A stretch of DNA of 64,000 nucleotides from Minisyncoccota bacterium (GCA_041665325.1 JBAYJB010000001.1:61824-125823); one strand, 5' to 3'; shown: positions 11,807 to 40,768, counted from the stretch's first letter. Notes: generated from the sequence alone by a model not told the origin. Translations and numbers: made by a program.

Positions 11807-12325
11807 ATGTTCTCCGAACCAGCCGTAAATCTGCTCAAATTGGGCTTGACTGACGGCTCAAAAGTCGTCGATCTTGGGGCTGGCAGTGGCTTCTATGCCC
11901 TCGAGGCGGCTAGGAGAGTCGGCTCCAGTGGCCGTGTCTATGCCGTGGATGTTCAGAAAGATCTCCTAGAGCGCCTGCGTTCTGCCGGCGCGGTCGAAGG
12001 ACTCCATAACATCGAGGTCGTTTGGGGCAATGCCGAGAAGATCGGCGGCACCAAGCTCCGCGAAGGTATCGCCGACCGCGTGATCGTCTCCAACATCCTC
12101 TTCCAGGTAGCCAACCTCGAAGATTTTGTCCTTGAAGTCAAACGCATCACCAAGCCCGGCGGCAAGATCCTAGTCGTCGACTGGAGCGGTATCACTCCTC
12201 TCTCGCCCAAGGCCATCGTGCCGCTAGAGAAGGCTCAGACTCTGTTCGAGAAGAACGGCTTCTCCCTGGAACAGTCCTGGAATGCCGGCGACCACCATTA
12301 CGGGTTGACTTTCAAGAAGAGCTGA
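11807..12325 (+). CDS. Class I SAM-dependent methyltransferase
   Basis: Motif I VVDLGAGSGFYALEAA. Confidence 0.75.
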   Translation: MFSEPAVNLLKLGLTDGSKVVDLGAGSGFYALEAARRVGSSGRVYAVDVQKDLLERLRSAGAVEGLHNIEVVWGNAEKIGGTKLREGIADRVIVSNILFQVANLEDFVLEVKRITKPGGKILVVDWSGITPLSPKAIVPLEKAQTLFEKNGFSLEQSWNAGDHHYGLTFKKS

Positions 12326-12338
12326 AAAAATAACTGAC

Positions 12339-13640
12339 ATGAAGATTTCCAAATTTCAATTGATCACCTTAGCCATCTTCGTCATCTGCATCATCGCGGG
12401 GGTGATCGCCTTCGCCACATTCAAAAACAGCAGTTCCAAGGATACGATCCCGCCGATCACCGTCTGGGGGACTTTCCCCAAGGCCACTTTCGAGCAGTAT
12501 GTCTCCAGGGTTAACAGCACTCTAGCCCTGCCGATCACCGCCGCTTATACCCAGAAGTCGACCGATGCCTTCCTGTCTGATTTCGTCTCGGCTCTGGCGC
12601 GCGGCTCCGGCCCGGACGCCGTGCTCATCCCGGCCGACATGATCCTACCGGCGCAGGATAAGCTCGCGCCTATCCCGTACTCCGTCATCCCACAGAGGAC
12701 CTTCCTCAATTCCTACATCGACGAGAGCGGCGTGTACCTCTCGGCCGACGGCGTCCTCGCCGTTCCGTTCATCACCGATCCCTTGGTCATGTTCTGGAAC
12801 AGAGACCTCTACAATGCCGCCGGCATCGCTCTGCCACCCAAGTCCTGGGACGAATTTACCGGCCTCAATCAGAAGCTGACGGTCAAGGACCAGAATGGTA
12901 CGATCACCCGGAGTGCTGTAGCCATGGGAGACTTCAGCAATATCACCAATGCCCGGGAGATCCTGGCCACGCTTTTCCTGCAGAGCGGCAACCCGATCAC
13001 AGCCATCGCTTCTGATGGTGCTCTGTCCAGCACCATCAACAATTCCGCCAAGGCCGACCCGACGGCGGCCATCCAGTTCTTCACGCGCTTCGTCGACCCG
13101 ACTGATACCAACTATTCCTGGAACCGCTCATGGCCCAATGCCAAGACGGCCTTCGTCTCCGGAAAGCTGGCGACATACTTCGGATTGGCCTCGGAACTGT
13201 CCGATATCCGCGCCAAGAATCCCAATCTGAATTTCGATGTGGCCGCGGTCCCGCAAGCCAAGCAGGGCAGCGTCAAGACGGTCTATGCTCGGCTCTACGG
13301 CCTATCCATCGTCAAAGCATCGAACAATATCAATGCCGCGTACGCTGTCATCTCCATCCTGACGGACCCGACCAACCTAGTCGAGGTATCCAAGCTGGCA
13401 TACCTGCCTTCCGTCTCCCGCCCAGTCATCGCCGCTGGTTTCGAGGACCCGTATATCACGCTCTTCAACCAGGCGGCTCTGATCAGCCGGACTTGGCTCG
13501 ATGCTGGACCGACGCAATCCAGTCAACTCTTTGCAGAGATGATCCAGAGCGTGACTAGCGGCAAGAAGGCTCCTTATCAAGCCATCCGAGACGCCGGCAG
13601 CCAGTATGATGTGCTCCTGCGCCAAGCGGTAGGGCAATAA
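12339..13640 (+). CDS. Extracellular solute-binding protein (ABC-type, family 1-like), membrane-anchored; no permease or ATPase adjacent
   Basis: 433 aa with N-terminal TM anchor and SBP-like periplasmic domain architecture. Confidence 0.6.
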   Translation: MKISKFQLITLAIFVICIIAGVIAFATFKNSSSKDTIPPITVWGTFPKATFEQYVSRVNSTLALPITAAYTQKSTDAFLSDFVSALARGSGPDAVLIPADMILPAQDKLAPIPYSVIPQRTFLNSYIDESGVYLSADGVLAVPFITDPLVMFWNRDLYNAAGIALPPKSWDEFTGLNQKLTVKDQNGTITRSAVAMGDFSNITNAREILATLFLQSGNPITAIASDGALSSTINNSAKADPTAAIQFFTRFVDPTDTNYSWNRSWPNAKTAFVSGKLATYFGLASELSDIRAKNPNLNFDVAAVPQAKQGSVKTVYARLYGLSIVKASNNINAAYAVISILTDPTNLVEVSKLAYLPSVSRPVIAAGFEDPYITLFNQAALISRTWLDAGPTQSSQLFAEMIQSVTSGKKAPYQAIRDAGSQYDVLLRQAVGQ

Positions 13641-13646
13641 TATAAT

Positions 13647-14087
13647 ATGAAGACTAAACTCATCATTCTCGCTCTCCTCGTCACGAACTTCATGCCAATG
13701 ATCGCGCCTTTGGTATCGGCCCAGAGCCAGGTGCCGGAGGTGAATATCAATGATGAGGGATTCAAACTGGTCATATGCGATGGCCCGGGAGGCCCGCTCG
13801 CCAAGAGCGACCCGAATTACAAGGTTTGTGACTTCCAGGCTCTGATGGATCAGGTCCAATATCTCATCAATGTCATGATCGTCCTCGGGGTGATCGGCGC
13901 GCTAGTGGGTTTTGCTTACTCCGGTTATCTCCATATCACGGGCGTTCCCGGCAACATCACCAAGGCCTGGGGGATATTCAAGAAAGTCGCCATCGGCTTC
14001 GTCATCATGCTCACGGCATGGTTCGTCGTTTATCAGATCCTAGAGTGGCTCACTGGCAATGCGGCCAACTATCTCGGCAATGGTTAA
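13647..14087 (+). CDS. VirB2/TrbC-like pilin family protein (paralog 1 of 6)
   Basis: Sec signal peptide (..APLVSA|QS), about 40-aa mature segment, then two long hydrophobic helices separated by a short polar loop. Confidence 0.6.
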   Translation: MKTKLIILALLVTNFMPMIAPLVSAQSQVPEVNINDEGFKLVICDGPGGPLAKSDPNYKVCDFQALMDQVQYLINVMIVLGVIGALVGFAYSGYLHITGVPGNITKAWGIFKKVAIGFVIMLTAWFVVYQILEWLTGNAANYLGNG

Positions 14088-14094
14088 AAATATC

Positions 14095-14571
14095 ATGAAG
14101 AACACCAACATCATCAAATATCTTGCAGGCGCGTTTTTACTCATCGTCCTACTTCTTGGTTCGAATAGTTTCGTCTTTGCCCAGGGCACAACCGTGACTC
14201 CCGTGTCTAATACAGGGAGTCAGACAGTGACACCAGGATCATCCGGCAGTTTCTCACTCCAGAATCCCTTGAGCAACAAATACAAGACTGTCGGGGGACT
14301 GGTTGGCGGCTTCATGGAATATTTCTCATATCTGGTCATCCTGTTCGCTGTCCTGGCGCTCATATATGTCGGCCTACAGTTCGTCCTGGCGCAAGGGAAA
14401 CCGGACAAGATGAAGGAGCTCAAGGGTTGGCTCGGCTGGATCATCGTCGGCGTGGCCATCGTGATAGGGGCGCGCATCCTGGTCAATGTGGTCATCAACA
14501 CCCTGCAGGCGACGGGCGCGGTGAACCCAAATGTTATTAACAGCGCGAACAATGCCCTGAAGAACCAGTAG
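14095..14571 (+). CDS. VirB2/TrbC-like pilin family protein (paralog 2)
   Basis: MKNTNIIKYLAGAFLLIVLLLGSNSFVFA|QG signal peptide followed by two hydrophobic helices (LVILFAVLALIYVGLQFVLA, WIIVGVAIVIGARILVNVVI). Confidence 0.6.
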   Translation: MKNTNIIKYLAGAFLLIVLLLGSNSFVFAQGTTVTPVSNTGSQTVTPGSSGSFSLQNPLSNKYKTVGGLVGGFMEYFSYLVILFAVLALIYVGLQFVLAQGKPDKMKELKGWLGWIIVGVAIVIGARILVNVVINTLQATGAVNPNVINSANNALKNQ

Positions 14572-14607
14572 TGCTAGTATTTAATCGTATTAATATATAT
14601 AAACATT

Positions 14608-15027
14608 ATGTTCAACAAGACTAAAACAGCATTATTGTCGATTTGTACCTTCTCACTTCCTGCTCTGGTTTCGGCTCAGGTAACGCTTGATCATGTGAGT
14701 GAAACTGGCGTGACAGTCCGCGGGGCTGTTGGCGGGACTACACTTAGCAGCATAATCGATATTATCATCTCGTATCTCGGCCAGATCCTCTTCCTCCTCA
14801 TGGCCTTGGCCGTGGTCATGTTCGTCTGGTATGTCATCAAATACTTCATCAGGGCTGATACAGACAAGAAGGAGGCCGGATCATATGTCATGTACAGCCT
14901 CATCGGCTTCTTCGTCATCCTCTCGCTCTGGGGCATCATCAATATCCTTGGCAACAGCTTCAACATCGGCAACGCGGATAACACTTCCGCGTCCTGGGCC
15001 AACTTCAAGAACCTAATGCCGAAATAA
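14608..15027 (+). CDS. VirB2/TrbC-like pilin family protein (paralog 3)
   Basis: Signal peptide ..PALVSA|QV and two TM helices. Confidence 0.6.
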   Translation: MFNKTKTALLSICTFSLPALVSAQVTLDHVSETGVTVRGAVGGTTLSSIIDIIISYLGQILFLLMALAVVMFVWYVIKYFIRADTDKKEAGSYVMYSLIGFFVILSLWGIINILGNSFNIGNADNTSASWANFKNLMPK

Positions 15028-15032
15028 CTGAT

Positions 15033-15395
15033 ATGAAGAAGATCACCACAGCGCTATTCATCATGTCCCCTTGGATGGTTTTTGCCCAAGACCGAGTCAC
15101 GGATGCCAATTCTCTGTTCGACAAGCTCACTGATCTGGGCAACATGGCGATCTGGCTGCTCATCGGCCTAGCCGTCGTCTTTATCGTCTGGAATTCCGTC
15201 TTGTTCATCTTTCACGCTGCGGATGATACCAACCGCGCCAAATATCGCAGTGCCATCCTCTGGGGGATAGTTGGTTTGTTCATCATCATGTCCATCTGGG
15301 GTTTGGTGGCTATCTTGAGCAATACTTTTGGTACATACAACGAGGATCATGCCGGCGGATTCTCCAAAGATGTGGATAGTCTCATCCTGAAATAG
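15033..15395 (+). CDS. VirB2/TrbC-like pilin family protein (paralog 4)
   Basis: MKKITTALFIMSPWMVFA|QDRVTDANSLFDKLT.. Close paralog of the 15511 gene (ILWGIVGLF.I.SIWGLV.ILSNTF). Confidence 0.65.
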   Translation: MKKITTALFIMSPWMVFAQDRVTDANSLFDKLTDLGNMAIWLLIGLAVVFIVWNSVLFIFHAADDTNRAKYRSAILWGIVGLFIIMSIWGLVAILSNTFGTYNEDHAGGFSKDVDSLILK

Positions 15396-15442
15396 CGCTC
15401 GGATCCGTAATCCACAGCCGCCTTCTGTTCGGCCCAGAAATC

Positions 15443-15494
15443 TGGTATAATCAGGCCAAGCTAAATTGTCGCATTAATTAGCAGTAGCTTAATA
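15443..15494 (+). promoter_or_regulatory. Promoter candidates for pilin paralog 5: extended -10 TGGTATAAT (15443..15451) and TTGTCG-N17-TTAATA (15466..15494)
   Basis: Both read directly from the sequence. Confidence 0.3.
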
Positions 15495-15510
15495 AATATC
15501 AATAATTAGT

Positions 15511-15870
15511 ATGAAAAAGCTCATCGCTACCCTCGCCGTTCTCGCTCCTTCGGTCGCCTTCGCCCAGCGCGCGGTCACCGACGTCAACTCTCTTAGCCAG
15601 AAATTGACAGGCATCGGCAATACGGTCATCGGCATCCTCATCGCCGTCGCCGTCATCTTCCTCATCGTCAATGTCGTCTTGTTCATCGTCAATGCTGGCG
15701 GTGATGATCGCAAGAAGTATCAGAGCGCCATCCTCTGGGGCATCGTCGGCCTGTTCGTCATCCTCTCGATCTGGGGCCTCGTCAACATCTTGAGCAACAC
15801 ATTCAACACTCAGAATCAGGCGCCGATCCAGGATTTCCCAACTAACCCATATCCGGTTCCGGTTCAATAG
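15511..15870 (+). CDS. VirB2/TrbC-like pilin family protein (paralog 5)
   Basis: MKKLIATLAVLAPSVAFA|QRAVTDVNSLSQKLT.. followed by two TM helices. Confidence 0.65.
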   Translation: MKKLIATLAVLAPSVAFAQRAVTDVNSLSQKLTGIGNTVIGILIAVAVIFLIVNVVLFIVNAGGDDRKKYQSAILWGIVGLFVILSIWGLVNILSNTFNTQNQAPIQDFPTNPYPVPVQ

Positions 15871-15894
15871 CATCTTCGTGGGGCGCGCCAATCC

Positions 15895-16188
15895 ATGTTT
15901 TCTCACTTCATAACTATAGCCCAAGCCGCGACTGATGACGCGGCTTTTGGCAAGGCGCTCGATCCGATCATCGCCAATATCGTCAATCCTCTGGTGATGC
16001 TGGCTTTCGCTGTAGCGGTCGTGGCCTTCGTCTACGGAGTGATCCAGATGATCATCCATGCGACCGACGCCCAACAGCACAAGAATGGGCGCTTGAGCAT
16101 GATCGGCGGCCTGATCGGCATGTTCATCATGTTCTCGGCCTGGGGCATCATCAATATCATCTCCAATACGGTCAAGGGGTTCCAGTAG
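15895..16188 (+). CDS. VirB2/TrbC-like pilin family protein (paralog 6); signal peptide not evident from this start
   Basis: The core is conserved (LVMLAFAVAVVAFVYGVIQM.., IGGLIGMFIMFSAWGIINIISNT) but the N-terminus lacks an obvious Sec signal. It may be degenerate or use another start. Confidence 0.45.
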   Translation: MFSHFITIAQAATDDAAFGKALDPIIANIVNPLVMLAFAVAVVAFVYGVIQMIIHATDAQQHKNGRLSMIGGLIGMFIMFSAWGIINIISNTVKGFQ

Positions 16189-16278: not shown

Positions 16279-16707
16279 CTAGGCTTTGGGGACGATCTTC
16301 CAGGCAACCTTGCCTGTCTTGATGGCTTGACCGGGCATTACGCGCCATTCCGTGACATTGGCAGGCGGTGTGACCAGTTTATTAGTCGTACCCTCCTTCC
16401 AGTTTCGCGGATAGAGCGTGTATACCTTGGCCGGATCCTTATCCAGCCGGATCTGCCACCAGACATCATCGGTCAACAGATTTCCGACAACGCTCTTGGT
16501 GTTGTCGAGACAGATCACTTCCTTCCACTGGGTATCGTCGATATCGACGACGCCGGAGGTGGGGGAGGTGGCGACAGCGGCTTTCCGCTGGGAGCTGTTC
16601 TCTAGGAGATCGGGGTTGCGGATGGCCACCCCGACGCCGTAGACGATGAGGCCTAACAGCATCACGATGGCTAGAACCTTCATGGGATTGTTGGTGGTAG
16701 TTTTCAT
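16279..16707 (-). CDS. Hypothetical membrane-anchored protein, translationally coupled to the SPFH gene (ATGA overlap)
   Basis: 142 aa with N-terminal TM (VLAIVMLLGLIVYGVGVAI). A role as an NfeD-like partner is speculative. Confidence 0.45.
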   Translation of the reverse strand: MKTTTNNPMKVLAIVMLLGLIVYGVGVAIRNPDLLENSSQRKAAVATSPTSGVVDIDDTQWKEVICLDNTKSVVGNLLTDDVWWQIRLDKDPAKVYTLYPRNWKEGTTNKLVTPPANVTEWRVMPGQAIKTGKVAWKIVPKA

Positions 16708-17756
16708 CTTCCACCTCCCGCGATAGCGCCGGCTCGCTCCGTCCGTGGCTCATGATCGGTGTTTCCGACACTGCCGACGTTGACGATGCGCCCGCCTTGG
16801 GTGATTGTGACCTTCTTGTCCTTGGCCAGTCGCTCGAACATGATCTCGTCGCGGCAAGCTTTGGCACTGACATCGGGAAGGCCCGCATCTGTGTAGAGCT
16901 TGATCCGGGCGACCGTCTGCTTGTTGATGGTCTCGGTCTCCTTGAGCTCCGAAACCTGCTGCAGCTCCTCGATGACCCGATCCTCGTCGGCGGTGATGAC
17001 CGCCGTATTGATCGGGGTGAGCTCCACCTGGATCTTCTTGATCTTGCCACCCAGTCCGCGCGTGTCGTCAAGCTCGTCGGTATCACCAATCTGCCTATGC
17101 GCCTTGATTCGGGTGAGAAGCTTGACGGCGATGGCTGTCGGATGAGTCTCGGCCCATTTGTATGTCCGAGCGTTCTTCTCATCTTCGGTCAACCCCTCCT
17201 CCTCACCCACTACAATCTCCTGAACACCGACGGCGATGATATCGTTGACCTGGGCCCAATAGCCATCGAAGCCACCGATATCGAACCATTCCCAGAGCTT
17301 GTGAGCCCCGGATCTACGGTCCTTTTCTGGGACGCAGCTCCTATCATCGTCTTCATCCGGCATCACACTGACTGACACCATCCCCTTCATCCTGACGTTG
17401 TCGTGACAGCGCACGCTCGTGATGGGGAACGACTTGTCCAATTTCTTGATGTCGAAGGCAGTGATGCCGATGATGTCGAAACCGAACGGGTTGAGGCCGA
17501 GGGTCAGACCCTCGACCTTGCAATAGGTGCGTTGCCCCAACACTGTCAGGACACCGACCTGTCTCGGCTTGTCTCCGTCGCCCGGCGACAGGATCCTGAA
17601 TCCGGAGGCGATCAAGCCGCCGGGGATAAGGATCAACAGACCAGACCAGAACCAGCCGGAGAAGAGCAGATCCCCACCGATCCCGAATGACAAAAGCATC
17701 AGGAGCAGTAGAGCACTGCAGTATCTGTTCATCAATCCAGTGAATGGATTTTTCAT
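16704..17756 (-). CDS. SPFH/band-7 (stomatin/prohibitin-like) domain membrane protein
   Basis: N-terminal TM segments and a band-7 core (GVLTVLGQRTYCKVEGLTL.. FPITSVRCHDNVRMKGMVSVSV). Confidence 0.6.
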   Translation of the reverse strand: MKNPFTGLMNRYCSALLLLMLLSFGIGGDLLFSGWFWSGLLILIPGGLIASGFRILSPGDGDKPRQVGVLTVLGQRTYCKVEGLTLGLNPFGFDIIGITAFDIKKLDKSFPITSVRCHDNVRMKGMVSVSVMPDEDDDRSCVPEKDRRSGAHKLWEWFDIGGFDGYWAQVNDIIAVGVQEIVVGEEEGLTEDEKNARTYKWAETHPTAIAVKLLTRIKAHRQIGDTDELDDTRGLGGKIKKIQVELTPINTAVITADEDRVIEELQQVSELKETETINKQTVARIKLYTDAGLPDVSAKACRDEIMFERLAKDKKVTITQGGRIVNVGSVGNTDHEPRTERAGAIAGGGR

Positions 17757-18747: not shown

Positions 18748-20865
18748 TTAAGGACCGCGCCCGTTACTGCGTCGCCCACCGTTGTGAGAGGCGGGACCAT
18801 TGTTCCGGCCCGGAGCGGACCGGGATGGGCCGCCGCGGGGCTGGATGGTCGGCTGGCGAGGCGGCGAGTGTCTCGGGGTGTAGCCCCGATAACTGTTGCC
18901 GCCGTGCCGACTGTGCTGTGGGTATGAATACCCACGATGATGGCCAGGGCTGTAGCGGTAACCGTAACCGCTATTACCCCAACCATACTGCACGCCGACC
19001 GAACCGACGATCATCGGTGAGCTGGAGTAATATCCTCCAGTGTAACCGCCGTAGTAGGCCGCCGGTTGAGGTGCCTCATAGGCTTCCTCATAGACGACCT
19101 CTTGGATGACCTCCTCCGTCACTTGGGGCTCGCGGTATTGAAGCGCGACCTTGGGTTCGGGCGGGGGAGGAGTGACCTTCTGCTCGATGTTCACCGTGAC
19201 CTCCACTTTCTGCGGCTGCTGGTGATGCGGCCGGGGTTCTGGATCACACACCGGCGCGGGCGGCTTCGACTCGACGGCCTTTTGGAGGGGCAGTGAATCG
19301 TTGCCATAGACAGGCGGCGTTGCACCGGGAGGGAGCGGCGGCGGTTGCAAATGCTTCCGCTGCAATTCCTCCTGATCGATGCGCAGCCGGTTGAGGCTGT
19401 CCATGATCGCGGCTTGACCGGCCTTGAGGGCCGGATCATCGGAGGAGCTCCTCACTGTCTGCGCGGACTGGGTAGCCCGGGCGAACAGGAAGAACGCCGA
19501 CAACGCCACGACGGCCACGATGGCGAGGATGACCAGCCAGGCCGTGACATTGCTGTCGCGGCTCGACGGGGTCTTCGCCGGCTGGCTCGACGGGACTTCT
19601 GGAGAGGGCTTCGGTCCCGGCTTGTTGGCCAGCTCCGCCACCTTATTCTCGATCTCCTTGAGGCCGCCGATCATGGTCTCACCCTGTTTCTTGAGGCCGT
19701 CGACGCTGGTCTGCACATTGCCCACCCCCGTGATGACCTTGTCGGCCTTCCCGGAGAGGAGTTCGGTGCCACCAGCTACGGCTTCGCCGAGCTGGTCCAC
19801 GGACTCCTGGGTCGCCAGGATGGCGATCCGGGAGAGCACGAGATCCATCCTGCTCGGCGGCCTTGGGGCCGGGGGCGGGGTGGCGGGCTCGGTGGACGGT
19901 GCCGACGGCGGTGGCGTCGCTTTGGACGGCTGGGCCGCGGGCGGTTGCTCGACTTCGTCCCGCGGATCCGCGTGTTGGCGGACCCGGGGTTCCTGGGGCT
20001 TGATCTCGGCGACGTAATGGTCCGTCAGCACGAGCTGGTGCTCGACCGTCTCGCTGCGCTTGCCGTCGTTGCCGAGGGCAGTCGCTTTGATGGTGATCGT
20101 GCCGGTCTTGAGCAGGCCGGCCACCGGATTGAGTTTGCGCAGATGGCCGGTGATATACCGGGCACTGCCAACCTCGTGTTTATCGAGCGGGAACACCTGG
20201 TTCCCATCCTTGTCGACGCCGACGACCTCGAGGAATTTCGTGGTCACGGGATCGACGCGGATGGACAGGTTGAGGCCCCGGAGTTGGATGTCCGGCTTCT
20301 CGATCGTGATGTCCGGGCCTGAAGCCCGATCGCCACGACCCGCGTCCATGATCTCTCCGATGGTGGCCAGAGGAGCCGCCAGGGGAGCCGACGGTGTCTC
20401 CACGACCGGCACCGCCGGAACGACTTCCGCAACGGGTGCGGCCGCCGCTGTTGGGGCGACCACCGCCACAGGTGTGGCTTCGGTCGCCGGAGACAGTTCG
20501 CGCAGAACCTTGGCTTCGTCCGCGCTAAGCGCGAACTCGGCCCGGGCCGGCAGGCTGTCGCGGTATTTCTCGCCGTTGAAGGCGATGACCTCGACAACGT
20601 ATCTGCCCTCGAAGGCCTCGGCGAACGAACCCTTGAGGTTCATGAGATAGACGGCCGGGATATCCAGGCTGCCATCCTTGACCGGGAACGAGTTCTTTTC
20701 GGCTGGCCAGATCGAGACGTTAGCGATGATGTTCCGGACATTGATCCGGAATCCCCCACAATCAGGGGAGGACAAGTGGATCTTGAAGACCACTTCTCCG
20801 GTTGTTTCCCGAGAGACCATGATGGTCGGCGTCGGGAGCGCTTTCTTTTGTGATGACTTTGGCAT
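18748..20865 (-). CDS. Large hypothetical single-pass membrane protein with Pro-rich and Gly/Tyr/Arg-rich low-complexity regions
   Basis: 705 aa with a TM segment (WLVILAIVAVVALSAFFLF), PPxP-rich segments and a C-terminal YGGYTGGYY..GYGYRYSPGHHRGYSY..RGG tail. Confidence 0.55.
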   Translation of the reverse strand: MPKSSQKKALPTPTIMVSRETTGEVVFKIHLSSPDCGGFRINVRNIIANVSIWPAEKNSFPVKDGSLDIPAVYLMNLKGSFAEAFEGRYVVEVIAFNGEKYRDSLPARAEFALSADEAKVLRELSPATEATPVAVVAPTAAAAPVAEVVPAVPVVETPSAPLAAPLATIGEIMDAGRGDRASGPDITIEKPDIQLRGLNLSIRVDPVTTKFLEVVGVDKDGNQVFPLDKHEVGSARYITGHLRKLNPVAGLLKTGTITIKATALGNDGKRSETVEHQLVLTDHYVAEIKPQEPRVRQHADPRDEVEQPPAAQPSKATPPPSAPSTEPATPPPAPRPPSRMDLVLSRIAILATQESVDQLGEAVAGGTELLSGKADKVITGVGNVQTSVDGLKKQGETMIGGLKEIENKVAELANKPGPKPSPEVPSSQPAKTPSSRDSNVTAWLVILAIVAVVALSAFFLFARATQSAQTVRSSSDDPALKAGQAAIMDSLNRLRIDQEELQRKHLQPPPLPPGATPPVYGNDSLPLQKAVESKPPAPVCDPEPRPHHQQPQKVEVTVNIEQKVTPPPPEPKVALQYREPQVTEEVIQEVVYEEAYEAPQPAAYYGGYTGGYYSSSPMIVGSVGVQYGWGNSGYGYRYSPGHHRGYSYPQHSRHGGNSYRGYTPRHSPPRQPTIQPRGGPSRSAPGRNNGPASHNGGRRSNGRGP

Positions 20866-32064: not shown

Positions 32065-32634
32065 ATGAGCATGTCATCCTACAAGGACAAGATCTTCGGT
32101 TTCTATCAGGACCATCGGCGCATGCCGAGCTATGCGGAGATCATGAAGCTCGTCGGTTTCAAGTCCAAGAATGCCGTCTATAAGCTGGTCGGCAAGCTCC
32201 TCGATGAGGGGGCGGTCCTCAAGGACGCGACTGGACGCCTCATCCCGACCAACCTCTTTGGCGAGATCCCACTCCTCGGGCTCGTCGAGGCCGGTTTCCC
32301 GACGGCGGCCGATGAAGTCAATCTCGACACCATGACACTCGACAGCTATCTCGTCGAGCGCAAGGAGCAGACCTACCTCCTCAAGGTCAAGGGCGACTCG
32401 ATGATCGACGCCGGCATCCAGGAGGGCGACTTAGTGTTGGCCGAGCGCGGCCGCGAACCTCGAGTGGGCGACATCGTGATCGCCGAGGTGGACGGGGGCT
32501 GGACCATGAAGTATTACCGCAAGAAGGGCAGTCAGGTCTACCTCGAGCCGGCCAACAAGGCCTACAAGAATATATACCCGGAGCAGGATCTCAACATTGC
32601 GGCAGTGGTCAAGGGGGTGGTCAGGAAGTATTGA
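32065..32634 (+). CDS. lexA: LexA repressor (S24 peptidase with N-terminal wHTH)
   Basis: HTH (YAEIMKLVGFKSKNAVYKLV), cleavage-site region (VEAGFPTAAD) and Ser/Lys dyad region (KVKGDSMIDAGIQEGDLVL ... W.MKYY.K). Confidence 0.8.
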   Translation: MSMSSYKDKIFGFYQDHRRMPSYAEIMKLVGFKSKNAVYKLVGKLLDEGAVLKDATGRLIPTNLFGEIPLLGLVEAGFPTAADEVNLDTMTLDSYLVERKEQTYLLKVKGDSMIDAGIQEGDLVLAERGREPRVGDIVIAEVDGGWTMKYYRKKGSQVYLEPANKAYKNIYPEQDLNIAAVVKGVVRKY

Positions 32635-33306: not shown

Positions 33307-34647
33307 ATGCCAACCAACGGCATCTCAACAGCCTCAAGCAAGCTCATCCGTGGCAGCACCTGGTCGATCATCAAGATCGAAGGGGCGGCCACAAATCAAA
33401 ATCGTGTGGAAGGCAAGGTCACCCTGTATAACTCCTCCGACCGGTCAAGTGATGTGAACGCCTGGACCGCTGTCAGGCACGGCACTGATCAGTGGGCCAT
33501 CACAGGCCAAGGCGCGCGCATGTCTACCGGCGAGCGAGTGCGCTCGCCATTCACATATCCGTTCGTTCTTATGAAGTCTGTCAATGACGATGTGAGGGCG
33601 GAACTGTCGCACTGGATACGCATCAACGGTAAGGCTCTCTTCAAACAAGGGTCCGAGTTGTATGACAGGAGGGTGCATGCATCCTCATCGGGCAATGGCA
33701 GGCTTCCTTCAAACGGAGATCTGCCGCTTACGGACACGTTGTCCAGTCAGCAGGCGACCGCCGCTGTCAATGCAACCGGGAGACTCGAAGTCATCGAAGT
33801 GCTAGTCTCGGAGATCCAGCCGTTCGAGGGTCAACCCCGTGAAGAATTCACCAAATCCGACTTGAGAGAGATCAGGGAGAGCCTGAGGCAGGAGGGCCAA
33901 CAGCAGATCATCTTCGTCACTCCGGTCAGCGGTGTGAGGGGGAAGAGATGGGAGCTTGTCGACGGCGAGCGCCGTTACCGCGGCGCCGTGGCGGCCGGTA
34001 TCCGGACCCTGACCGCCGTGGTCAAGCGCTTCAAGAACAAGGATGAGCAATTCTGGAGCTCATTCACCATGAATTGGAATCGGCGTGATCATACCCCGTA
34101 TGAGAATATCCGAGCTGTCGAACGGGCTATGAAGTCCGGCAAGACGGTTGCCCAGATTCGCACCGCCACCGGCCGTTCGGACTGCTGGGTCTATCAGAAC
34201 CTGCAGTTGCAAAATCTGGATCGCTCACTGCGCGCGCTTATGAAGCAGTCAGTCCCCAAAAGCGACCGCATGTCGTTCGGCATCGCCAACAGGCTTTCGC
34301 GGGTGCCGAGGGCCGAGGACCAGCTGCGTATCTGGAATGTGGCCAAGCAACAGCTCACTCCCAGCCTGCGCAAGCTCAAGGTGGATCAGCTGACTGCGGT
34401 CATCCTGGACAAACTGCCTCAGAAGGGCCGTAAGCGCAAACCTAGCGATAACGGGGTGCGAATCCTGCGTTGCCTACAGACGGCCGAAGCCGACCAGACC
34501 TTCATCAGTCGGACCACGGAAGAGGACCTGCGGGCATTCATGATGAATACCACCATGGACTTCAACCGCAGCGATCTTCTTCCTCGCGTCAGGGCGGTTG
34601 CCGCCGCCTGGGTGGAGCTCGCCAAGCGGGTCAGAAAGCTCAAGTGA
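33307..34647 (+). CDS. ParB/Srx-fold nuclease-like protein with HTH and N-terminal extra domain (not the partition ParB)
   Basis: ParB N-domain motifs (IEVLVSEIQPFEGQPR.. GVRGKRWELVDGERRYRGAVAAG) and an HTH (KTVAQIRTATGRSDCWVYQNLQL). Confidence 0.6.
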   Translation: MPTNGISTASSKLIRGSTWSIIKIEGAATNQNRVEGKVTLYNSSDRSSDVNAWTAVRHGTDQWAITGQGARMSTGERVRSPFTYPFVLMKSVNDDVRAELSHWIRINGKALFKQGSELYDRRVHASSSGNGRLPSNGDLPLTDTLSSQQATAAVNATGRLEVIEVLVSEIQPFEGQPREEFTKSDLREIRESLRQEGQQQIIFVTPVSGVRGKRWELVDGERRYRGAVAAGIRTLTAVVKRFKNKDEQFWSSFTMNWNRRDHTPYENIRAVERAMKSGKTVAQIRTATGRSDCWVYQNLQLQNLDRSLRALMKQSVPKSDRMSFGIANRLSRVPRAEDQLRIWNVAKQQLTPSLRKLKVDQLTAVILDKLPQKGRKRKPSDNGVRILRCLQTAEADQTFISRTTEEDLRAFMMNTTMDFNRSDLLPRVRAVAAAWVELAKRVRKLK

Positions 34648-35911: not shown

Positions 35912-36517
35912 ATGAAAAATGACCTCAAGTTCAAGAAGACTACGCGTATCAGCTGGAACAGCTGGAACGACGGCACACCCGATAGAGATGCCTTTCCTGT
36001 GCCTCTGACATTGTCAAAAATACCGTTAGCGGCACGTGGATCATTCCTCGGTTTTGATATTCGCTCGTCTGTCTATCTCCACGGAGCGACCGTAGAGGCA
36101 ATCAGCGGAAAGCTTGGCAAGATCAATATAGTGATCGCTGCCCATCACAATGACAGGCCGCTTGGTGCCGGTGATCTTGTCAGTATTGCAAAGGGTTTGG
36201 CTACGCTCAACTCCGATATCTTGGAGTACCGAGGATTTCCTCTGAATAACCAAGGACCGTTCTTATTCGACTTGCGGGTTCCGAACGGCGCCGGATTCTG
36301 CGAGACTGCGGTCGAGCATGTCTCCAAAATCGTCACATTCCTTGGTGTCACAGGTGATCGTTGGTTCAGACATGCCATCAAGATTAAGCAATCGACGCTC
36401 GTTCTCGTGAAAGGGAACTGGATCGAATACGAGGATTATCTCGTCGGGAAGTTCCCGATCCGTCTGCCTAACTGCGCCGGAGAGCCCATCTTGCGTGAAG
36501 GCGGCATCGAAGCTTGA
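35912..36517 (+). CDS. Hypothetical protein (201 aa); C-terminus ..PILREGGIEA shared with gene 34806..35525
   Basis: No recognisable family. The 3' end and terminator form repeat module T2b (36486..36567). Confidence 0.45.
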   Translation: MKNDLKFKKTTRISWNSWNDGTPDRDAFPVPLTLSKIPLAARGSFLGFDIRSSVYLHGATVEAISGKLGKINIVIAAHHNDRPLGAGDLVSIAKGLATLNSDILEYRGFPLNNQGPFLFDLRVPNGAGFCETAVEHVSKIVTFLGVTGDRWFRHAIKIKQSTLVLVKGNWIEYEDYLVGKFPIRLPNCAGEPILREGGIEA

Positions 36518-36536
36518 AGTGTGATTTGGATCGTTC

Positions 36537-36567
36537 AGGGGCGCTCTCACGGGCGCCTCTTTTTTGT
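36537..36567 (+). terminator. Intrinsic terminator, module T2 copy b
   Basis: GGGGCGCTCTCACGGGCGCC + T6. Confidence 0.6.
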
Positions 36568-36585
36568 TTGTGCTAGGATTCTTGC

Positions 36586-36909
36586 ATGCCACTCATCAAT
36601 CTAGAATATGACAAGGAGATAGTTTCAGACGGGGATATTAGGATTCTATCTCAAGCTGTTCGTGACATTGTTTCAGAAACTACGGGCATAGAAGACGTCT
36701 TTGTCTATGCCAATGCTTCACAGATACGTATCAGAGTCGCTCCAGTAGAGATATTTGTCAGGATGACAGCCAAGAAGATCAAGAATGAAGACGAACTTAT
36801 AGGTACTATTAAATCTAAACTTAAGGAATGGAAACAAGGCTCCCGTTTTAAGCACCCGATAAATTTGACTCTAATACCCATGAATTGGAAGGTTGAGATA
36901 GGGATATAA
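36586..36909 (+). CDS. Hypothetical protein, possibly tautomerase-superfamily-like (starts Met-Pro); AT-rich gene
   Basis: MPLINLEYDKEIVSDGDIRILSQAVRDIV.. The Pro1 and length resemble 4-OT-like proteins, but the assignment is weak. Confidence 0.3.
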   Translation: MPLINLEYDKEIVSDGDIRILSQAVRDIVSETTGIEDVFVYANASQIRIRVAPVEIFVRMTAKKIKNEDELIGTIKSKLKEWKQGSRFKHPINLTLIPMNWKVEIGI

Positions 36910-36914
36910 CCAAC

Positions 36915-37499
36915 ATGTCCCTCACCCTCATCTTCGAAGCCCATGGCACGACATCTGATAACGAAGCCCACCTATCGTCGGGCTGGTATGATGTGGCCCT
37001 ATCTCCCAAGGGCGAACAGCAGTCGCGGGAGATGGGCGAGCGTTACAGGGACGACCATTTCGACGCCATATTCTGCTCGGACTTACAGCGGGCCTGGAGA
37101 AGCGCAGAGATTGCATTTTGTAAGAATAAAGTTGGAAAGCTTGTTACAGACAATGATTTTCTTAAGGCGGAATGTAAGTTTCCAATAATAACCGATGCGC
37201 GCCTGCGTGAATGCAATTATGGCGACCTGACGCAGAAACCGAGCGAGCTCGTGGACGCGGAGAAGACGAAGCGGATCAGCGTGCCATTCCCGAACGGCGA
37301 GAGCTACGAGGAGACCAATGCTCGGATGAAGTCGTTCCTAGAAGACCTGAAGAGGGACTATGACGGCAAGAGGGTCATGGTCATCGGCCACCGCGCGACG
37401 CAGTACGGCATCGAGGCGTATGTCAATGGTATGACCGTCGAAGAATGTCTGGCCAAACCATTCAAATGGGAGCCGGGGTGGGTTTACAAAATCAAATAG
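36915..37499 (+). CDS. Histidine phosphatase superfamily (phosphoglycerate mutase-like) protein; its 3' end forms att-like repeat copy 0
   Basis: LIFEAHGTTSDNEAHL (degenerate RHG motif) and VMVIGHRATQYGIE (second His motif). Confidence 0.55.
   Translation: MSLTLIFEAHGTTSDNEAHLSSGWYDVALSPKGEQQSREMGERYRDDHFDAIFCSDLQRAWRSAEIAFCKNKVGKLVTDNDFLKAECKFPIITDARLRECNYGDLTQKPSELVDAEKTKRISVPFPNGESYEETNARMKSFLEDLKRDYDGKRVMVIGHRATQYGIEAYVNGMTVEECLAKPFKWEPGWVYKIK
37458..37499 (+). repeat. att-like repeat R3, copy 0 (3' end of phosphatase gene: CCATTCAAATGGGAGCCGGGGTGGGTTTACAAAATCAAATAG)
   Basis: Related copies are at 38206..38249 and 38971..39028. Confidence 0.55.
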
Positions 37500-37513
37500 G
37501 GTAAACTATCGGT

Positions 37514-38068
37514 GTGAATCCCGAAAAGAAACAGTTACAGAATATTGCTTTTGTTGATGGCCAGAATCTCCATCTTGGTACAAGGGGGAACTCTTGGGCC
37601 ATTGATCACATAAAGTTCAGAACATACCTCAAAGAGAAATATAAGATTGACGAGGCCTATTATTTCCTCGGTTTTATATCTACAGGTGAACAGGATCTTT
37701 ACGATAGGCTTCAAAAAGCTGGATTTATACTTAGTTTTCGTGAGCACCCAGCAAATCTGAAGGGTAGTAAGAAGGGAAATGTTGATTCAGATATCATTTT
37801 TAGCCTTATGAAGAAGCTAGTTGAGAATGAGCCGTTTGATAAAGCCTTCATCATATCGGGTGATGGGGATTATAAAAAATTAGTCGATTTTCTCATAAAA
37901 AGAGTTAAATTTGGGAAAATGCTTTTTCCAAACAATGGTAATGCATCATCACTTTATAAAGCGTTAGGTGGTGAATACTTCGATTTTCTTGATTCTCCGG
38001 ATGTGAGGGCAAAGATTGAATATACCCATGTATCGCGTAGTGCTCCCATAATGAAAAAGGCCCCTTAG
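37514..38068 (+). CDS. NYN-domain (LabA/DUF88, PIN-like) protein; GTG start; AT-rich
   Basis: IAFVDGQNLHLGTRG.. and FIISGDGDYKKLVDFL are the NYN signature. Confidence 0.65.
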   Translation: MNPEKKQLQNIAFVDGQNLHLGTRGNSWAIDHIKFRTYLKEKYKIDEAYYFLGFISTGEQDLYDRLQKAGFILSFREHPANLKGSKKGNVDSDIIFSLMKKLVENEPFDKAFIISGDGDYKKLVDFLIKRVKFGKMLFPNNGNASSLYKALGGEYFDFLDSPDVRAKIEYTHVSRSAPIMKKAP

Positions 38069-38205
38069 GTATTGCACCGTTCGGGTCCTTCTTCGTAGTT
38101 ATACATGACGAATATACCCGTTTTATATTACAAAGTCAAGTTTTGTGGGTGTGGATTATTTCGCTATTTAAAGGCTAGAATATGTAGGTATCCACACTAG
38201 GCCGA

Positions 38206-38249
38206 GATTTCAAATGGCAGCTGTGGTGGAAGTATGAGGTGAGGTAACG
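38206..38249 (+). repeat. att-like repeat R3, copy 1 (GATTTCAAATGGCAGCTGTGGTGGAAGTATGAGGTGAGGTAACG)
   Basis: Shares TTCAAATGGCAGC.G.GGTGG..TATGA..TGAGGTAA with copy 2 and TTCAAATGG.AGCCGGGGTGGGT with copy 0. Confidence 0.55.
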
Positions 38250-38334
38250 TCCTTGCATTTTGGTCTAATCTGTGGTTTCATCATTCATGAACTTAGCTGA
38301 AGAATTTAACCAATGGAAAAGGAGATATAGCTCT

Positions 38335-38919
38335 ATGAAAATGTCAGATTTCGCGGCTGTAACAGCCGTAGACCCACACGAGGAAACTGCGTTAGCTTAC
38401 CAGTATCCCCTTCCTCTAATCAGGACGAACTTCGTCAAACGTTTCCTCCTGAAGCGTGGTATACCTGCCAACGAGTATTATCACATGGATGTGTTCGACT
38501 GTGCTCGCAGCCCGCAATCACATGTAGGTCCATTCGTGAACGCGATCGATTTCTTGGTGCCTGACGGCACGATCGTGCTTGCGGCGCGTGATGGAGCGAT
38601 CATCGACATCAAAGAGGATTCTTCCGAATGGGGGGACAATCCCCGGTTCCGCGATAAGCTCAACTACGTGACTGTTGATCACGGAAATGGCGAGTTCTCG
38701 CAGTACTGCCACCTACGCAAAGGATCGGTCGCGGCTCTCGGTCTCAGTCTCAATCGGCTTGTCTCGGCCGGCCAGCAGATCGCCGTGGTTGGCAAAACCG
38801 GCTGGACCGATCGAGATCACCTGCACTTCATCGTCTTCAAGAAGGTTGAGGGCGGCGATGGCTTCAAGAGTCTGAAGATTCAATTCATCGGTAGTACCGA
38901 TTTTGACCCAAGCGTCTAA
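38335..38919 (+). CDS. M23 family (LytM-like) metallopeptidase
   Basis: HxxxD (HMDVFD), VTVDHGNGEFSQYCHL, GKTGWTDRDHLHF. The start at 38335 has an AAGGAG RBS 10 nt upstream. The longer ORF from 38272 overlaps repeat copy 1. Confidence 0.7.
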   Translation: MKMSDFAAVTAVDPHEETALAYQYPLPLIRTNFVKRFLLKRGIPANEYYHMDVFDCARSPQSHVGPFVNAIDFLVPDGTIVLAARDGAIIDIKEDSSEWGDNPRFRDKLNYVTVDHGNGEFSQYCHLRKGSVAALGLSLNRLVSAGQQIAVVGKTGWTDRDHLHFIVFKKVEGGDGFKSLKIQFIGSTDFDPSV

Positions 38920-38970
38920 GGGTCGATCCAACCACTCTCCCGGGTGACTGTAATGGTCATCCGGTTTTTT

Positions 38971-39028
38971 ATTCAAATGCATTTCAAATGGCAGCCGGGG
39001 TGGGTGTATGAATTGAGGTAATAAAACC
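38971..39028 (+). repeat. att-like repeat R3, copy 2 (ATTCAAATGCATTTCAAATGGCAGCCGGGGTGGGTGTATGAATTGAGGTAATAAAACC)
   Basis: Includes an internal partial duplication, ATTCAAATG. Confidence 0.55.
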
Positions 39029-39090
39029 TAAAACTCGGTTCGTTTGATTTAAATAAAAGTTATCGTTATACGTTTCTCAAATATCCTTAT

Positions 39091-39118
39091 TTGACATAAG
39101 AAGTATGAGGAATATAAT
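39091..39118 (+). promoter_or_regulatory. Consensus sigma70 promoter TTGACA-N16-TATAAT driving the AT-rich three-gene operon
   Basis: Both hexamers are perfect. The ATG at 39150 is about 25 nt downstream of the predicted TSS. Confidence 0.6.
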
Positions 39119-39149
39119 ATAACAATAACTATAAATATACTCTAACAAC

Positions 39150-39536
39150 ATGGCGTTAAAAGACCTAATACAAAATACAAATTCAACAGAGAAGGATTTA
39201 GAAAATATTCTAAAGAGTAGAGTAAAACTGCTCAAGATCAATGACCTTTACTCTGTCCACATAGAAAGGTCATTTTCTAAGACATTGGATCAAAAAAACA
39301 AAATTCTTTTCTATTTGGCAGGCAAACTAGCTTGGCAAATCTTAGAGAAGAATCAGATTTGGGTAAAACCAAAGGAGTTAGAATCTGAGCTTGGTATTAG
39401 TGGGGGTACAATAAGACCAAGTCTCCTTGCTTTCAAAAAGCATAAGTTTGTTGAGTATAACAAGAAAGATAAAGGCTATCGATTAACAGGAGTTGGTTTG
39501 TCTGAGCTTATAAAGTTCCAAGAGGAGCTTGAGTAA
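39150..39536 (+). CDS. Hypothetical winged-helix (wHTH) protein, gene 1 of the AT-rich operon
   Basis: 128 aa. PKELESELGISGGTIRPSLLAFKKHKFVEYNKKDKGYRLTGVGLSEL resembles MarR/ArsR-type wHTH. About 33% GC. Confidence 0.45.
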   Translation: MALKDLIQNTNSTEKDLENILKSRVKLLKINDLYSVHIERSFSKTLDQKNKILFYLAGKLAWQILEKNQIWVKPKELESELGISGGTIRPSLLAFKKHKFVEYNKKDKGYRLTGVGLSELIKFQEELE

Positions 39537-39541
39537 ATATC

Positions 39542-39970
39542 ATGGATAACGAAACGCTAAAAGAGATAAACAAAAAGCTTGATAAGATACTTTTTATTCT
39601 TGGTGGGCAAGTAAAAGAACCTATGAGAAGTAGGAGCCCCTCATCAGTAAAGTCACTACAAAAAGGTACTACTTTTGACGCGCACACCATTAACTTTAAT
39701 CAAAATAATCGGGCATTTTTCAAAAAATATATTGGAGACATGACCGGTCCAGAGAAGTATACTCTGACCTTGGCTTTTTGCGCAAAAGGGAAAATAGGTC
39801 TACCTGTAGAATCAGAAAAAATAAATAACCTCTGGAATAAACTGTTTGTAATTTTCGGAGGTAAGCTAACTTCACGTACTTATGCGACTAGGGCAAAAGA
39901 AAAGGGTTGGATCGACTCTAATAAGCATGGTGAATATTTTCTAAGAGATCAGTGGGCAGCGATATTCTAA
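39542..39970 (+). CDS. Hypothetical protein, gene 2; carries a domain paralogous to the N-terminus of gene 3
   Basis: MTGPEKYTLTLAFCAKGKIGLPVESEKINNLWNK...YATRAKEKGWID aligns with MTGEEKFLALGVIISQEKIDLDISASDVRSKWSK...YYRAESKGWVI of the next gene. Confidence 0.45.
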   Translation: MDNETLKEINKKLDKILFILGGQVKEPMRSRSPSSVKSLQKGTTFDAHTINFNQNNRAFFKKYIGDMTGPEKYTLTLAFCAKGKIGLPVESEKINNLWNKLFVIFGGKLTSRTYATRAKEKGWIDSNKHGEYFLRDQWAAIF

Positions 39971-39977
39971 GTAAACC

Positions 39978-40742
39978 ATGTTTGATTATAAACACAAAAG
40001 TTTATTAGCTTTATTAAGCGGACTACCCTTAGATTCAATGACTGGGGAAGAAAAGTTCCTTGCGTTAGGAGTGATAATTTCTCAGGAAAAGATTGATCTC
40101 GATATCTCTGCTTCAGATGTAAGGAGTAAGTGGTCTAAGGGTTTACTTGGGAAATATAATCCAGGTTATTACTACCGGGCCGAATCAAAAGGGTGGGTAA
40201 TTCCCGATGATGCAGAGCATAATAAGTTTATTGTTACCCCTGAGGGTTTTAAACATCTTAAAACCACCATAGGCCATGAAGAGAAAGACGAACTACTAAA
40301 TCCAAAAGAAGTAAGAAAGACAGGTAAACTTTTTATTTTCAACAAATCAAGCGCGTACAGCTTCGATAAGTTTATTAGGAATATTCTAAAAAATGCTAAA
40401 AGTAGGGTTTTAATAGCAGATTCATATGTAGATGAGACAATATTTGATAATCATCTTGAAACTTTACCCAACGACCTAATTATAAAAGTCCTCTTTATGA
40501 ATGACTCTGGCTCATTCGGCGCAAGAATGAAAAGATTCAAGGTTCAATTTAAGAAATCAGATTTCAAAAAGTATAAAGATTTACACGATAGATTTATTAT
40601 TGTAGATGATATTGCTTATATTATAGGGCCATCAATAAAAGATGCTGCGGCCAATAGCCCAGCAATTGTTGTGGGTCTTAATCAACAGGAAACTTTGCTC
40701 ATTAGTAATTTTTTTAGCGACATTTGGAAATTAGGCAAATAG
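39978..40742 (+). CDS. Hypothetical two-domain protein, gene 3: N-terminal domain shared with gene 2, plus a C-terminal PLD-like (HKD-variant HxR..D..GPS) putative nuclease domain
   Basis: The C-terminal ..KYKDLHDRFIIVDDIAYIIGPSIKD fits HxK-x4-D-x6-G(S)xN with K replaced by R, and there is a preceding RVLIADSYVD strand. This is an inference from motif spacing only. Confidence 0.4.
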   Translation: MFDYKHKSLLALLSGLPLDSMTGEEKFLALGVIISQEKIDLDISASDVRSKWSKGLLGKYNPGYYYRAESKGWVIPDDAEHNKFIVTPEGFKHLKTTIGHEEKDELLNPKEVRKTGKLFIFNKSSAYSFDKFIRNILKNAKSRVLIADSYVDETIFDNHLETLPNDLIIKVLFMNDSGSFGARMKRFKVQFKKSDFKKYKDLHDRFIIVDDIAYIIGPSIKDAAANSPAIVVGLNQQETLLISNFFSDIWKLGK

Positions 40743-40768
40743 ATTTTGTTTGCTGATATACTGTCAGC

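Follow-up and report, generated by a model that had tools for sequence, protein, structure and literature searches.

Patescibacteria account for a large share of bacterial diversity. In a 64,000-nucleotide stretch of DNA from a Minisyncoccota bacterium (GCA_041665325.1 JBAYJB010000001.1:61824-125823), which as a whole we call the window, six consecutive genes at positions 13647-16188 encode proteins resembling VirB2, the pilin of type IV secretion systems (T4SSs), and this array is our subject here. The systems closest to it have been described in the same phylum. In a survey of 3,035 Patescibacteria genomes searched with the families PF04956 and PF18895, VirB2-like pilins were found in 1,948 VirB4-containing assemblies, near virB4 in 1,135 and away from it in 813 of the 1,948, or about 40% (Quinonero-Coronel et al. 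2025, PMC12102498). The survey also counted 441 VirB2 arrays, each of 2-11 genes, among 383 Patescibacteria assemblies; they were commonest in Microgenomatia and Saccharimonadia, and the mean pilin identity was 25%, with a maximum of 54% (PMC12102498). In Southlakia epibionticum ML1, the T4SS cluster SEML1_0006-0019, which includes a series of pilins, was essential by transposon sequencing (Tn-seq; Wang et al. 2023, PMC10633639), and a six-pilin array lies inside this T4SS cluster essential for epibiotic growth (PMC10633639; PMC12857230). Among T4SSs, that of Patescibacteria, with its VirB2-like pilins, was the first for which a requirement in growth was demonstrated, in Southlakia. T4SS genes near dnaA/dnaN have been reported for Paceibacteria.

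The array in the window is a new example of this published kind of Patescibacteria VirB2 array (PMC12102498; PMC10633639; PMC12857230). Published arrays consist of 2-11 PF18895 or PF04956 genes of low mutual identity in Patescibacteria, in tandem or with one gene in between, and the window has six in tandem, with pairwise identities of 26-52%. Our reading, which we hold to be probable, is that the six genes form a chromosomal operon of distinct VirB2/TrbC-superfamily subunits, the Paceibacteria version of such pilin arrays, and serve a VirB4-powered T4SS encoded elsewhere. What is new is modest: positional orthology of the pilins, and an invariant linkage to a gene for a solute-binding protein (SBP), across a large Paceibacteria clade. 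The locus represents no new kind of system, and it sharpens the question of what the T4SSs of Patescibacteria do.

Six VirB2-like pilin genes in tandem

The array is made of six consecutive open reading frames (ORFs) on the plus strand, and a scan with a family hidden Markov model found exactly six family members in the window, all of them in the array.

13647..14087, + strand: pil1, VirB2-like pilin paralog, 146 aa; PF18895 31.0 bits
14095..14571, + strand: pil2, 158 aa (the longest ORF, from 14059, gives 170 aa); PF18895 33.2 bits, PF04956 28.9 bits
14608..15027, + strand: pil3, 139 aa; PF18895 30.9 bits
15033..15395, + strand: pil4, 120 aa; PF18895 47.1 bits
15511..15870, + strand: pil5, 119 aa; PF18895 38.9 bits
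15895..16188, + strand: pil6, short terminal paralog, 97 aa; PF18895 40.0 bits

All six proteins exceed the Pfam gathering cutoff of PF18895 (T4SS_pilin, 26.6 bits), scoring between 30.9 and 47.1 bits, and nearly all of their homologues carry precomputed PF18895 matches. Judged by these profile scores, the membership of all six in the family is solid. The cutoff of PF04956 (TrbC/VirB2, 27.9 bits) is passed by pil2 alone; pil5 reaches 13.3 bits, and the other four have no match. PF04956 is common among pil2 orthologues, one of which is named 'TrbC/VirB2 family protein' by NCBI, and pil2 is, on its profile matches, the copy nearest to classical TrbC/VirB2. Evidence for a deeper relationship to VirB2/TrbC comes from the PF04956 matches of pil2 and its orthologues, together with a shared topology and cleavage motif. 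For the motif, we used a reference alignment of six annotated VirB2/TrbC proteins whose genes lie between virB1 and virB3 (the Agrobacterium VirB2 query matched the annotated virB2 at 99% by tblastn). A-x-A-Q is invariant at the leader cleavage site of this alignment and is shared with the window pilins. In hhalign comparisons with the alphaproteobacterial VirB2/TrbC alignment, the window family is in register over helix 1, the loop and helix 2, although the match is weak. The pilin orthogroups described below are homologous to one another (hhalign probability 89-99.8%), with pil3 and pil5 matching at 99.8%. The initial annotation, made from the sequence alone, had described six same-strand VirB2/TrbC-like pilin genes in tandem, and both the arrangement and the superfamily identity stand.

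Alignment and hydropathy place an N-terminal signal peptide ending V/A-x-A, followed by Gln, on pil1-pil5; after the leader come two hydrophobic helices with a K/R-rich loop between them. An AlphaFold model of pil5 (mean pLDDT 72) has a leader helix at residues 3-16 and a hairpin of helices 25-60 and 67-100. These are the features of a VirB2-type protein, namely a small precursor, a Sec leader, two helices and a basic loop, with cleavage being predicted and the leader of pil6 only 11 residues long. The common architecture attributed to the six copies held for the AxA leaders of pil1-pil5 and for the two helices, and needs correction in two respects: the polar segment before helix 1 reaches about 40-45 aa in pil1 and pil2 only, being about 18-25 aa in pil3-pil5, and the motif ILWGIVGLF..SIWGL..IL.NTF is literal in pil4 and pil5 only. 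In pil1, the signal peptide ends in VSA ahead of Q, and a long exposed N-terminal part follows. The consensus of the pil1 orthogroup, CDGP...C.F, places two conserved Cys in this exposed segment, which suggests a disulfide.

The last copy had been thought to have lost its signal peptide. It keeps the leader MFSHFITIAQA, 11 residues ending A-x-A (A-Q-A), and in pil6 orthologues a leader of 8-13 residues ending small-x-A is conserved. No longer start is possible for pil6, because the TAG of pil5 lies in the same frame 24 nt upstream of its ATG, with no start codon between. By this comparison, the short leader is an old conserved trait and not a recent decay. Read-through of the pil5 stop (15868-15897) would yield a four-helix pil5-pil6 fusion protein, and we have no evidence that it occurs.

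None of the six proteins has the type IV pilin methylation motif (G followed across the cleavage point by F/MxxxE; PF07963, N_methyl). A type IV (pseudo)pilin of that kind is encoded at 56563-57411 on the plus strand, where the N-terminal methylation motif is fused to a Laminin_G_3 lectin-like domain; it belongs to a type IV pilus system of its own and has no relation to the VirB2-like array.

Ordered orthogroups and conserved neighbours in related genomes

The organism is a Patescibacterium (candidate phyla radiation, CPR) of the class Paceibacteria. NCBI has an identical pil5 protein, from a contig of 305,491 bp, under the name 'MAG: pilin [Candidatus Paceibacterota bacterium]'. When the alignment of pil5 orthologues was run against GTDB species representatives, 236 loci were confirmed, of which 80 were compared after their ORFs had been assigned to the best-matching window protein by phmmer. 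Among these one-genome-per-species contigs, the closest loci belong to metagenome-assembled genomes (MAGs) of Taylorbacteria, Parcubacteria, Paceibacterota and Minisyncoccia, with pil5 identities of at most 71%; these names and that given by NCBI agree with the CPR host proposed initially. Beside the pilin genes, the window has the following features.

11807..12325, + strand: class I SAM-dependent methyltransferase (MT), 172 aa; Pfam Methyltransf_31/11/25
12339..13640, + strand: membrane-anchored extracellular SBP, 433 aa; SBP_bac_1 PF01547 (68 bits), PF13416
15478..15506, + strand: promoter-like site TTAGCA-17-AATAAT in the gap before pil5, from a consensus scan
16279..16707, - strand, convergent: single-pass membrane protein, 142 aa, positional partner of the SPFH gene
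16704..17756, - strand, convergent: SPFH (stomatin/prohibitin/flotillin) superfamily membrane protein, 350 aa, recognised by family profile

The order gyrA-MT-SBP-pil1-pil2-pil3-(pil4)-pil5-pil6 recurs across the compared loci, and the pilin labels ascend in 79 of the 80. Each array position best matches the same window paralog throughout. Arrays have five genes, without pil4, in 45 loci and six genes in 23; pil4 is a lineage-restricted duplicate of pil5. Within the window, the paralogs are 26-36% identical in pairs, with the exception of pil4 and pil5 (52%), and identity within orthogroups across species is higher, at 39-54% (means of 40% for pil1, 39% for pil2, 46% for pil3, 54% for pil5 and 44% for pil6). 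The most conserved paralog is pil5, with 337 homologues, the best 120 of which are 57-100% identical to it. Among species, the exposed N-terminal segments of pil1-pil3 differ in both sequence and length. Given this collinearity in 79 of the 80 loci and the constant match of each position to one window paralog, the six copies are, by this positional comparison, ancient, non-redundant and non-interchangeable orthogroups. A fixed, ordered set of five or six subunits points to one heteromeric structure and not to antigenic variants. Seven loci (L033, L044, L065, L069, L076, L078 and L084) have an extra T4SS_pilin-like ORF on the minus strand between gyrA and MT; the window has none.

Upstream, MT opens a tightly packed and conserved MT-SBP-pilin block, although a functional tie between MT and the pilins is unproven. 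MT precedes SBP in 75 loci, and in all related loci with enough upstream sequence SBP is the gene directly before the first pilin (the SBP ORF of L015 contains ambiguous bases and was left out of the automatic assignment). Median gaps are 4 nt between MT and SBP, 4 nt between SBP and pil1, 5 nt between pil1 and pil2, 14 nt between pil2 and pil3, and 8 nt between pil5 and pil6. In the window, the SBP stop is 6 nt from the pil1 start, and in L096 the coding regions of MT and SBP, and of SBP and pil1, each overlap by 4 nt. The SBP is of a carbohydrate type, with weak similarity to MalE/UgpB-type NCBIfam models, and no gene for an ABC permease or ATPase lies near it within 10 kb of the array. It had been taken for an incidental flank of the array; given its place before the first pilin in every sufficiently long locus, at a median of 4 nt, we regard it instead as a partner of the pilins in a conserved operon. 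A wider gap precedes pil5, with medians of 87-97 nt in the relatives versus 4-14 nt between the other genes. The promoter-like site found there may be an internal promoter for pil5-pil6, as far as a consensus match can indicate; promoter-like sites in the array region are no commoner than chance in the same scan.

Downstream of pil6, homologues of the 142-aa protein occupy the same convergent slot on the minus strand, 51-167 nt away, in 34 loci, and homologues of the 350-aa protein hold the same convergent position in 35. Neither window protein has a Pfam match even at E=10, and the 142-aa protein has none in NCBIfam or PDB. A profile built from 29 positional homologues of the 350-aa protein matched PH stomatin (7.4e-7), prohibitin (3e-5) and QmcA (5e-4) over about 160-230 residues of these solved proteins. 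The convergent SPFH gene of the initial annotation is thereby borne out, being detectable by family profile only. In some relatives, a gene for a DsbA-like thioredoxin lies directly downstream of the locus (L004, 12236-13063). Farther along the window, at 18748-20865 on the minus strand, is a Pro/Ala-rich ORF of 705 aa (GC 0.64) with a central membrane helix, a Gly/Tyr/Arg-rich C-terminus and no Pfam match. An ORF of 466-987 aa, highly variable between relatives, stands in the corresponding minus-strand position about 1-3 kb beyond pil6, and that of L064 has an fn3 domain. This is a large, fast-evolving envelope protein beside the conserved array, and it could serve in host interaction.

Gene-wide dN/dS values (Nei-Gojobori) are 0.30-0.47 for the pilins, 0.27 for SBP, 0.18 for MT and 0.09 for GyrA; with dS at 1.2-1.7, near saturation, these ratios are rough upper-level indicators. 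Taken over whole genes, they indicate that the pilins evolve under purifying selection. The diversifying selection suggested earlier finds no echo in these values, in orthogroups fixed in 79 of 80 loci, or in orthologues that resemble one another more than paralogs do. The data argue against interchangeable diversifying variants and in favour of non-redundant subunits that have long existed as a set. Measurement confirmed that GC is lower in the array (0.50-0.51 versus 0.55-0.57 outside), and this is no sign of anything unusual: the drop falls mainly at first codon positions, and GC at third positions (GC3) is 0.67-0.77 versus 0.70-0.80 in the neighbours. It therefore reflects hydrophobic amino-acid content and not foreign origin.

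T4SS-type genes outside the array, proposed mechanism and rival readings

As had been stated initially, the window holds no T4SS machinery: a Pfam scan of 45 other ORFs, among them every ORF of 250 aa or more that does not lie inside a larger annotated gene, returned no VirB4, VirD4 or VirB6. The cluster neighbours that usually accompany a VirB2 gene (virB1, virB3, virB4) are likewise missing from the window. What the scan did return were housekeeping genes only, for FtsA, an aminoacyl-tRNA-synthetase-like protein with an anticodon-binding domain, ribosomal protein S1, GyrA, NusB-NUDIX, RNase III, SMC, ClpB, alanine racemase, ParB, TopA, DprA, SerS, Dus and DnaX. The ORF at 32065-32634, a candidate signal peptidase or TraF-like peptidase, was ruled out as either and is LexA. 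Two plus-strand proteins have a ParB_N domain (33307-34647 and 45187-46200); one is a canonical ParB, and the second, of 446 aa, has the ParB N-terminal domain only. The stretch 36000-41000 has a GC of 0.34-0.49 versus about 0.55 elsewhere and may be an acquired island; it encodes a histidine phosphatase, an NYN-domain protein and a Peptidase_M23 protein, and contains two ORFs without Pfam match (39542-39970 and 39978-40742).

Among the loci compared, one T4SS-type gene stands near an array, a 922-aa VirD4-like ATPase directly upstream of MT in L045 (126-2894, + strand). A 919-aa orthologue 75% identical to it, here called P0221, is listed as 'DUF87 domain-containing protein [Candidatus Paceibacterota bacterium]' and passes the cutoffs for T4SS-DNA_transf, TrwB_AAD_bind and DUF87. 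Its gene is absent from the window and is found on a contig of 305,491 bp, exactly the length of the one with pil5, under the same NCBI organism name. P0221 is thus very probably on the same contig as the array, and an ATPase of the coupling-protein type is very probably encoded by the source genome. A single 469,573-bp contig carries both the array and a P0221-type ATPase in one relative. These VirD4/TraG-like ATPases, of about 920 aa, begin with a DUF8128 domain of 500 residues, lack membrane helices at the N-terminus, and are 59-100% identical across 120 listed homologues. In a relative other than L045, the gene comes after those for giant Laminin_G/fn3 surface proteins. As for VirB4, the Taylorbacteria MAG RIFCSPHIGHO2_12_FULL_45_16, which has the same syntenic array (L036), is VirB4-positive in Table S1 of the survey, as are 14 of the 23 Taylorbacteria MAGs listed there (PMC12102498).

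In the scenario that we favour, of an operon serving a VirB4-powered T4SS encoded elsewhere, the precursors would be inserted by Sec and cut by signal peptidase I, leaving in the membrane a pool of hairpins whose two ends face outwards and whose charged loop lies within the cell. A Gram-positive-type (MPF-FATA-like) T4SS would then extract the hairpins and polymerise them, where the cell touches its host, into a single heteromeric structure, either an extracellular filament or a conduit spanning the wall. The copies are non-interchangeable and therefore probably have different structural roles. We suspect that pil5 is the major subunit, because it is the most conserved and stands behind its own intergenic gap, and that pil1-pil3 are minor or adaptor subunits, because their N-termini are longer, more variable and exposed. 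With its short leader, pil6 may be a specialised base or initiator subunit, and the co-transcribed SBP may bind ligands or the host surface at this same structure. Testable predictions are stoichiometric co-expression of the genes, pil5 as the major subunit, co-localisation of the SBP, and a co-occurrence with VirB4 that is either strict or absent.

Several observations weigh against this scenario. No filament has been seen in any Patescibacterium, the literature going no further than a 'potential to elaborate conjugative pili' (PMC12857230). VirB4, VirB6, VirB3 and VirB8 are all missing from the window and, in the 80 related loci, from the sequence within 10 kb of the array; in this clade the pilin set is always apart from T4SS genes and joined to the SBP gene. 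The VirD4-like ATPase is weak evidence for a working T4SS, since its family is ubiquitous in Patescibacteria, rarely near virB4 and dispensable in Southlakia. VirB4 was not detected in nine of the 23 Taylorbacteria MAGs, including all four with a GC of at least 49% according to their names (PMC12102498), which may reflect MAG incompleteness or real loss; the window has 55% GC, and high-GC members of the clade may have kept the array after losing VirB4. The hhalign match to VirB2 is weak (P = 0.001-0.2, probability at most 21%), and no solved pilin was recovered by sequence or fold searches of structures, those by sequence, which used profiles of the paralogs and of the pil5 orthologues, giving chance membrane-protein matches only (E > 0.05). 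What the individual paralogs and the SBP do is our inference only, as is the internal promoter.

The same observations bear on an alternative that we find unlikely, in which the six two-helix proteins (12 helices) form a T4SS-independent, hetero-oligomeric complex of the membrane or wall together with the SBP. Such a module might be an uptake channel that replaces the ABC permease, or an adhesion platform, and the SPFH pair might scaffold it. SBP and pil1 are 4-6 nt apart or overlapping in every related locus long enough upstream, there is neither an ABC permease or ATPase nor a T4SS gene within 10 kb, the array is detached from the T4SS throughout the clade, the VirB4-negative Taylorbacteria MAGs (9/23) would be accounted for, and a fixed set of five or six non-redundant subunits suits a defined complex. 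However, the whole region from rpsA/gyrA to smc is syntenic, so that adjacency may reflect low rearrangement, and the family is defined by T4SS clusters and elsewhere embedded in them (PMC10633639; PMC12102498). There is also no precedent for a VirB2-like permease, and the link between SBP and pilins is known from this clade. That the array is uncoupled from the T4SS and constitutes, with the SBP and perhaps the SPFH pair, a self-contained surface or membrane machine for the capture or uptake of host ligands seems to us distinctly unlikely. It could take the form of a heteromeric assembly of 12 helices or of a filament that needs no VirB4, and would, if real, be a new use of VirB2-like proteins.

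The remaining explanations fare less well. A cassette of interchangeable pilin versions, kept for surface variation or host matching under diversifying selection, is an idea offered for the VirB2 paralogs of Bartonella and Anaplasma and suggested for Patescibacteria arrays (PMC12102498), and it would fit the low identity of the paralogs (26-36%) and the varying exposed N-termini of pil1-pil3. We judge it very unlikely here, because each position is its own orthogroup in an order kept in 79 of 80 species, orthologues are closer across species (39-54%) than paralogs are within the genome, gene-wide dN/dS is 0.30-0.47, and pil5 is 57-100% identical across 120 listed homologues; the data can be explained with no invertible or recombination repeats. 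We give hardly any credence to a remnant of an integrated conjugative element (ICE) with pilin-like genes of the Mycoplasma ICE type. NF045849 (Mbov_0395) is indeed the best NCBIfam match for all copies except pil1, at 20-35 bits, below its cutoff of 40; but at least 80 species have the array between gyrA on one side and nusB-rnc-smc on the other, integrase, relaxase, VirB4 and repeat boundaries are all missing from the locus, and its GC3 is genome-like. We rejected this origin on synteny and native GC3. It is just as implausible that these are unrelated two-helix membrane proteins, such as holins or bacteriocin-immunity proteins, with a pilin-like topology only. Pfam holin families do match below threshold (E = 0.005-0.5), and fold searches give generic helical hairpins only. 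Yet all six proteins are above the PF18895 cutoff while the holin matches are far below theirs, a PHROGs search gave no match to holins, no lysin or bacteriocin gene is adjacent, and cleavable signal peptides are atypical of holins.

Comparison with known systems

The published VirB2 arrays of Patescibacteria are the nearest relatives of the window array, with which they share the phylum, a tandem arrangement of small PF18895/PF04956 proteins, Sec-type leaders and low identity. The window array differs from those of the survey in belonging to the Paceibacteria and in forming an operon with SBP and MT; positional orthology was not reported by the survey. The Southlakia array has six pilin genes, as has that of the window, but its pilins lie within the T4SS cluster, whereas the window array is away from T4SS genes.

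Agrobacterium VirB2 and RP4 TrbC resemble the window proteins in being small, with a leader ending A-x-A before Q and two helices around a short basic loop, and pil2 passes PF04956. In contrast, five of the six window paralogs fall below PF04956 and the profile similarity is weak (P = 0.001-0.2). The window host is also a monoderm, there is no adjacent virB1 or virB3, and six paralogs take the place of one. A TraF-type cyclase was not seen here. Mbov_0395 of the Mycoplasma ICE is likewise a small two-helix protein of a monoderm T4SS, of the MPF-FATA lineage, and its model is the best NCBIfam match of five of the six window proteins; these score below the cutoff, however, and the window locus is off mobile elements. 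The T4SSs of Bartonella and Anaplasma phagocytophilum, likewise host-dependent, also have several divergent VirB2 copies in tandem. Surface variation for immune evasion is the role proposed for these, whereas the window copies are stable, ordered orthogroups under purifying selection.

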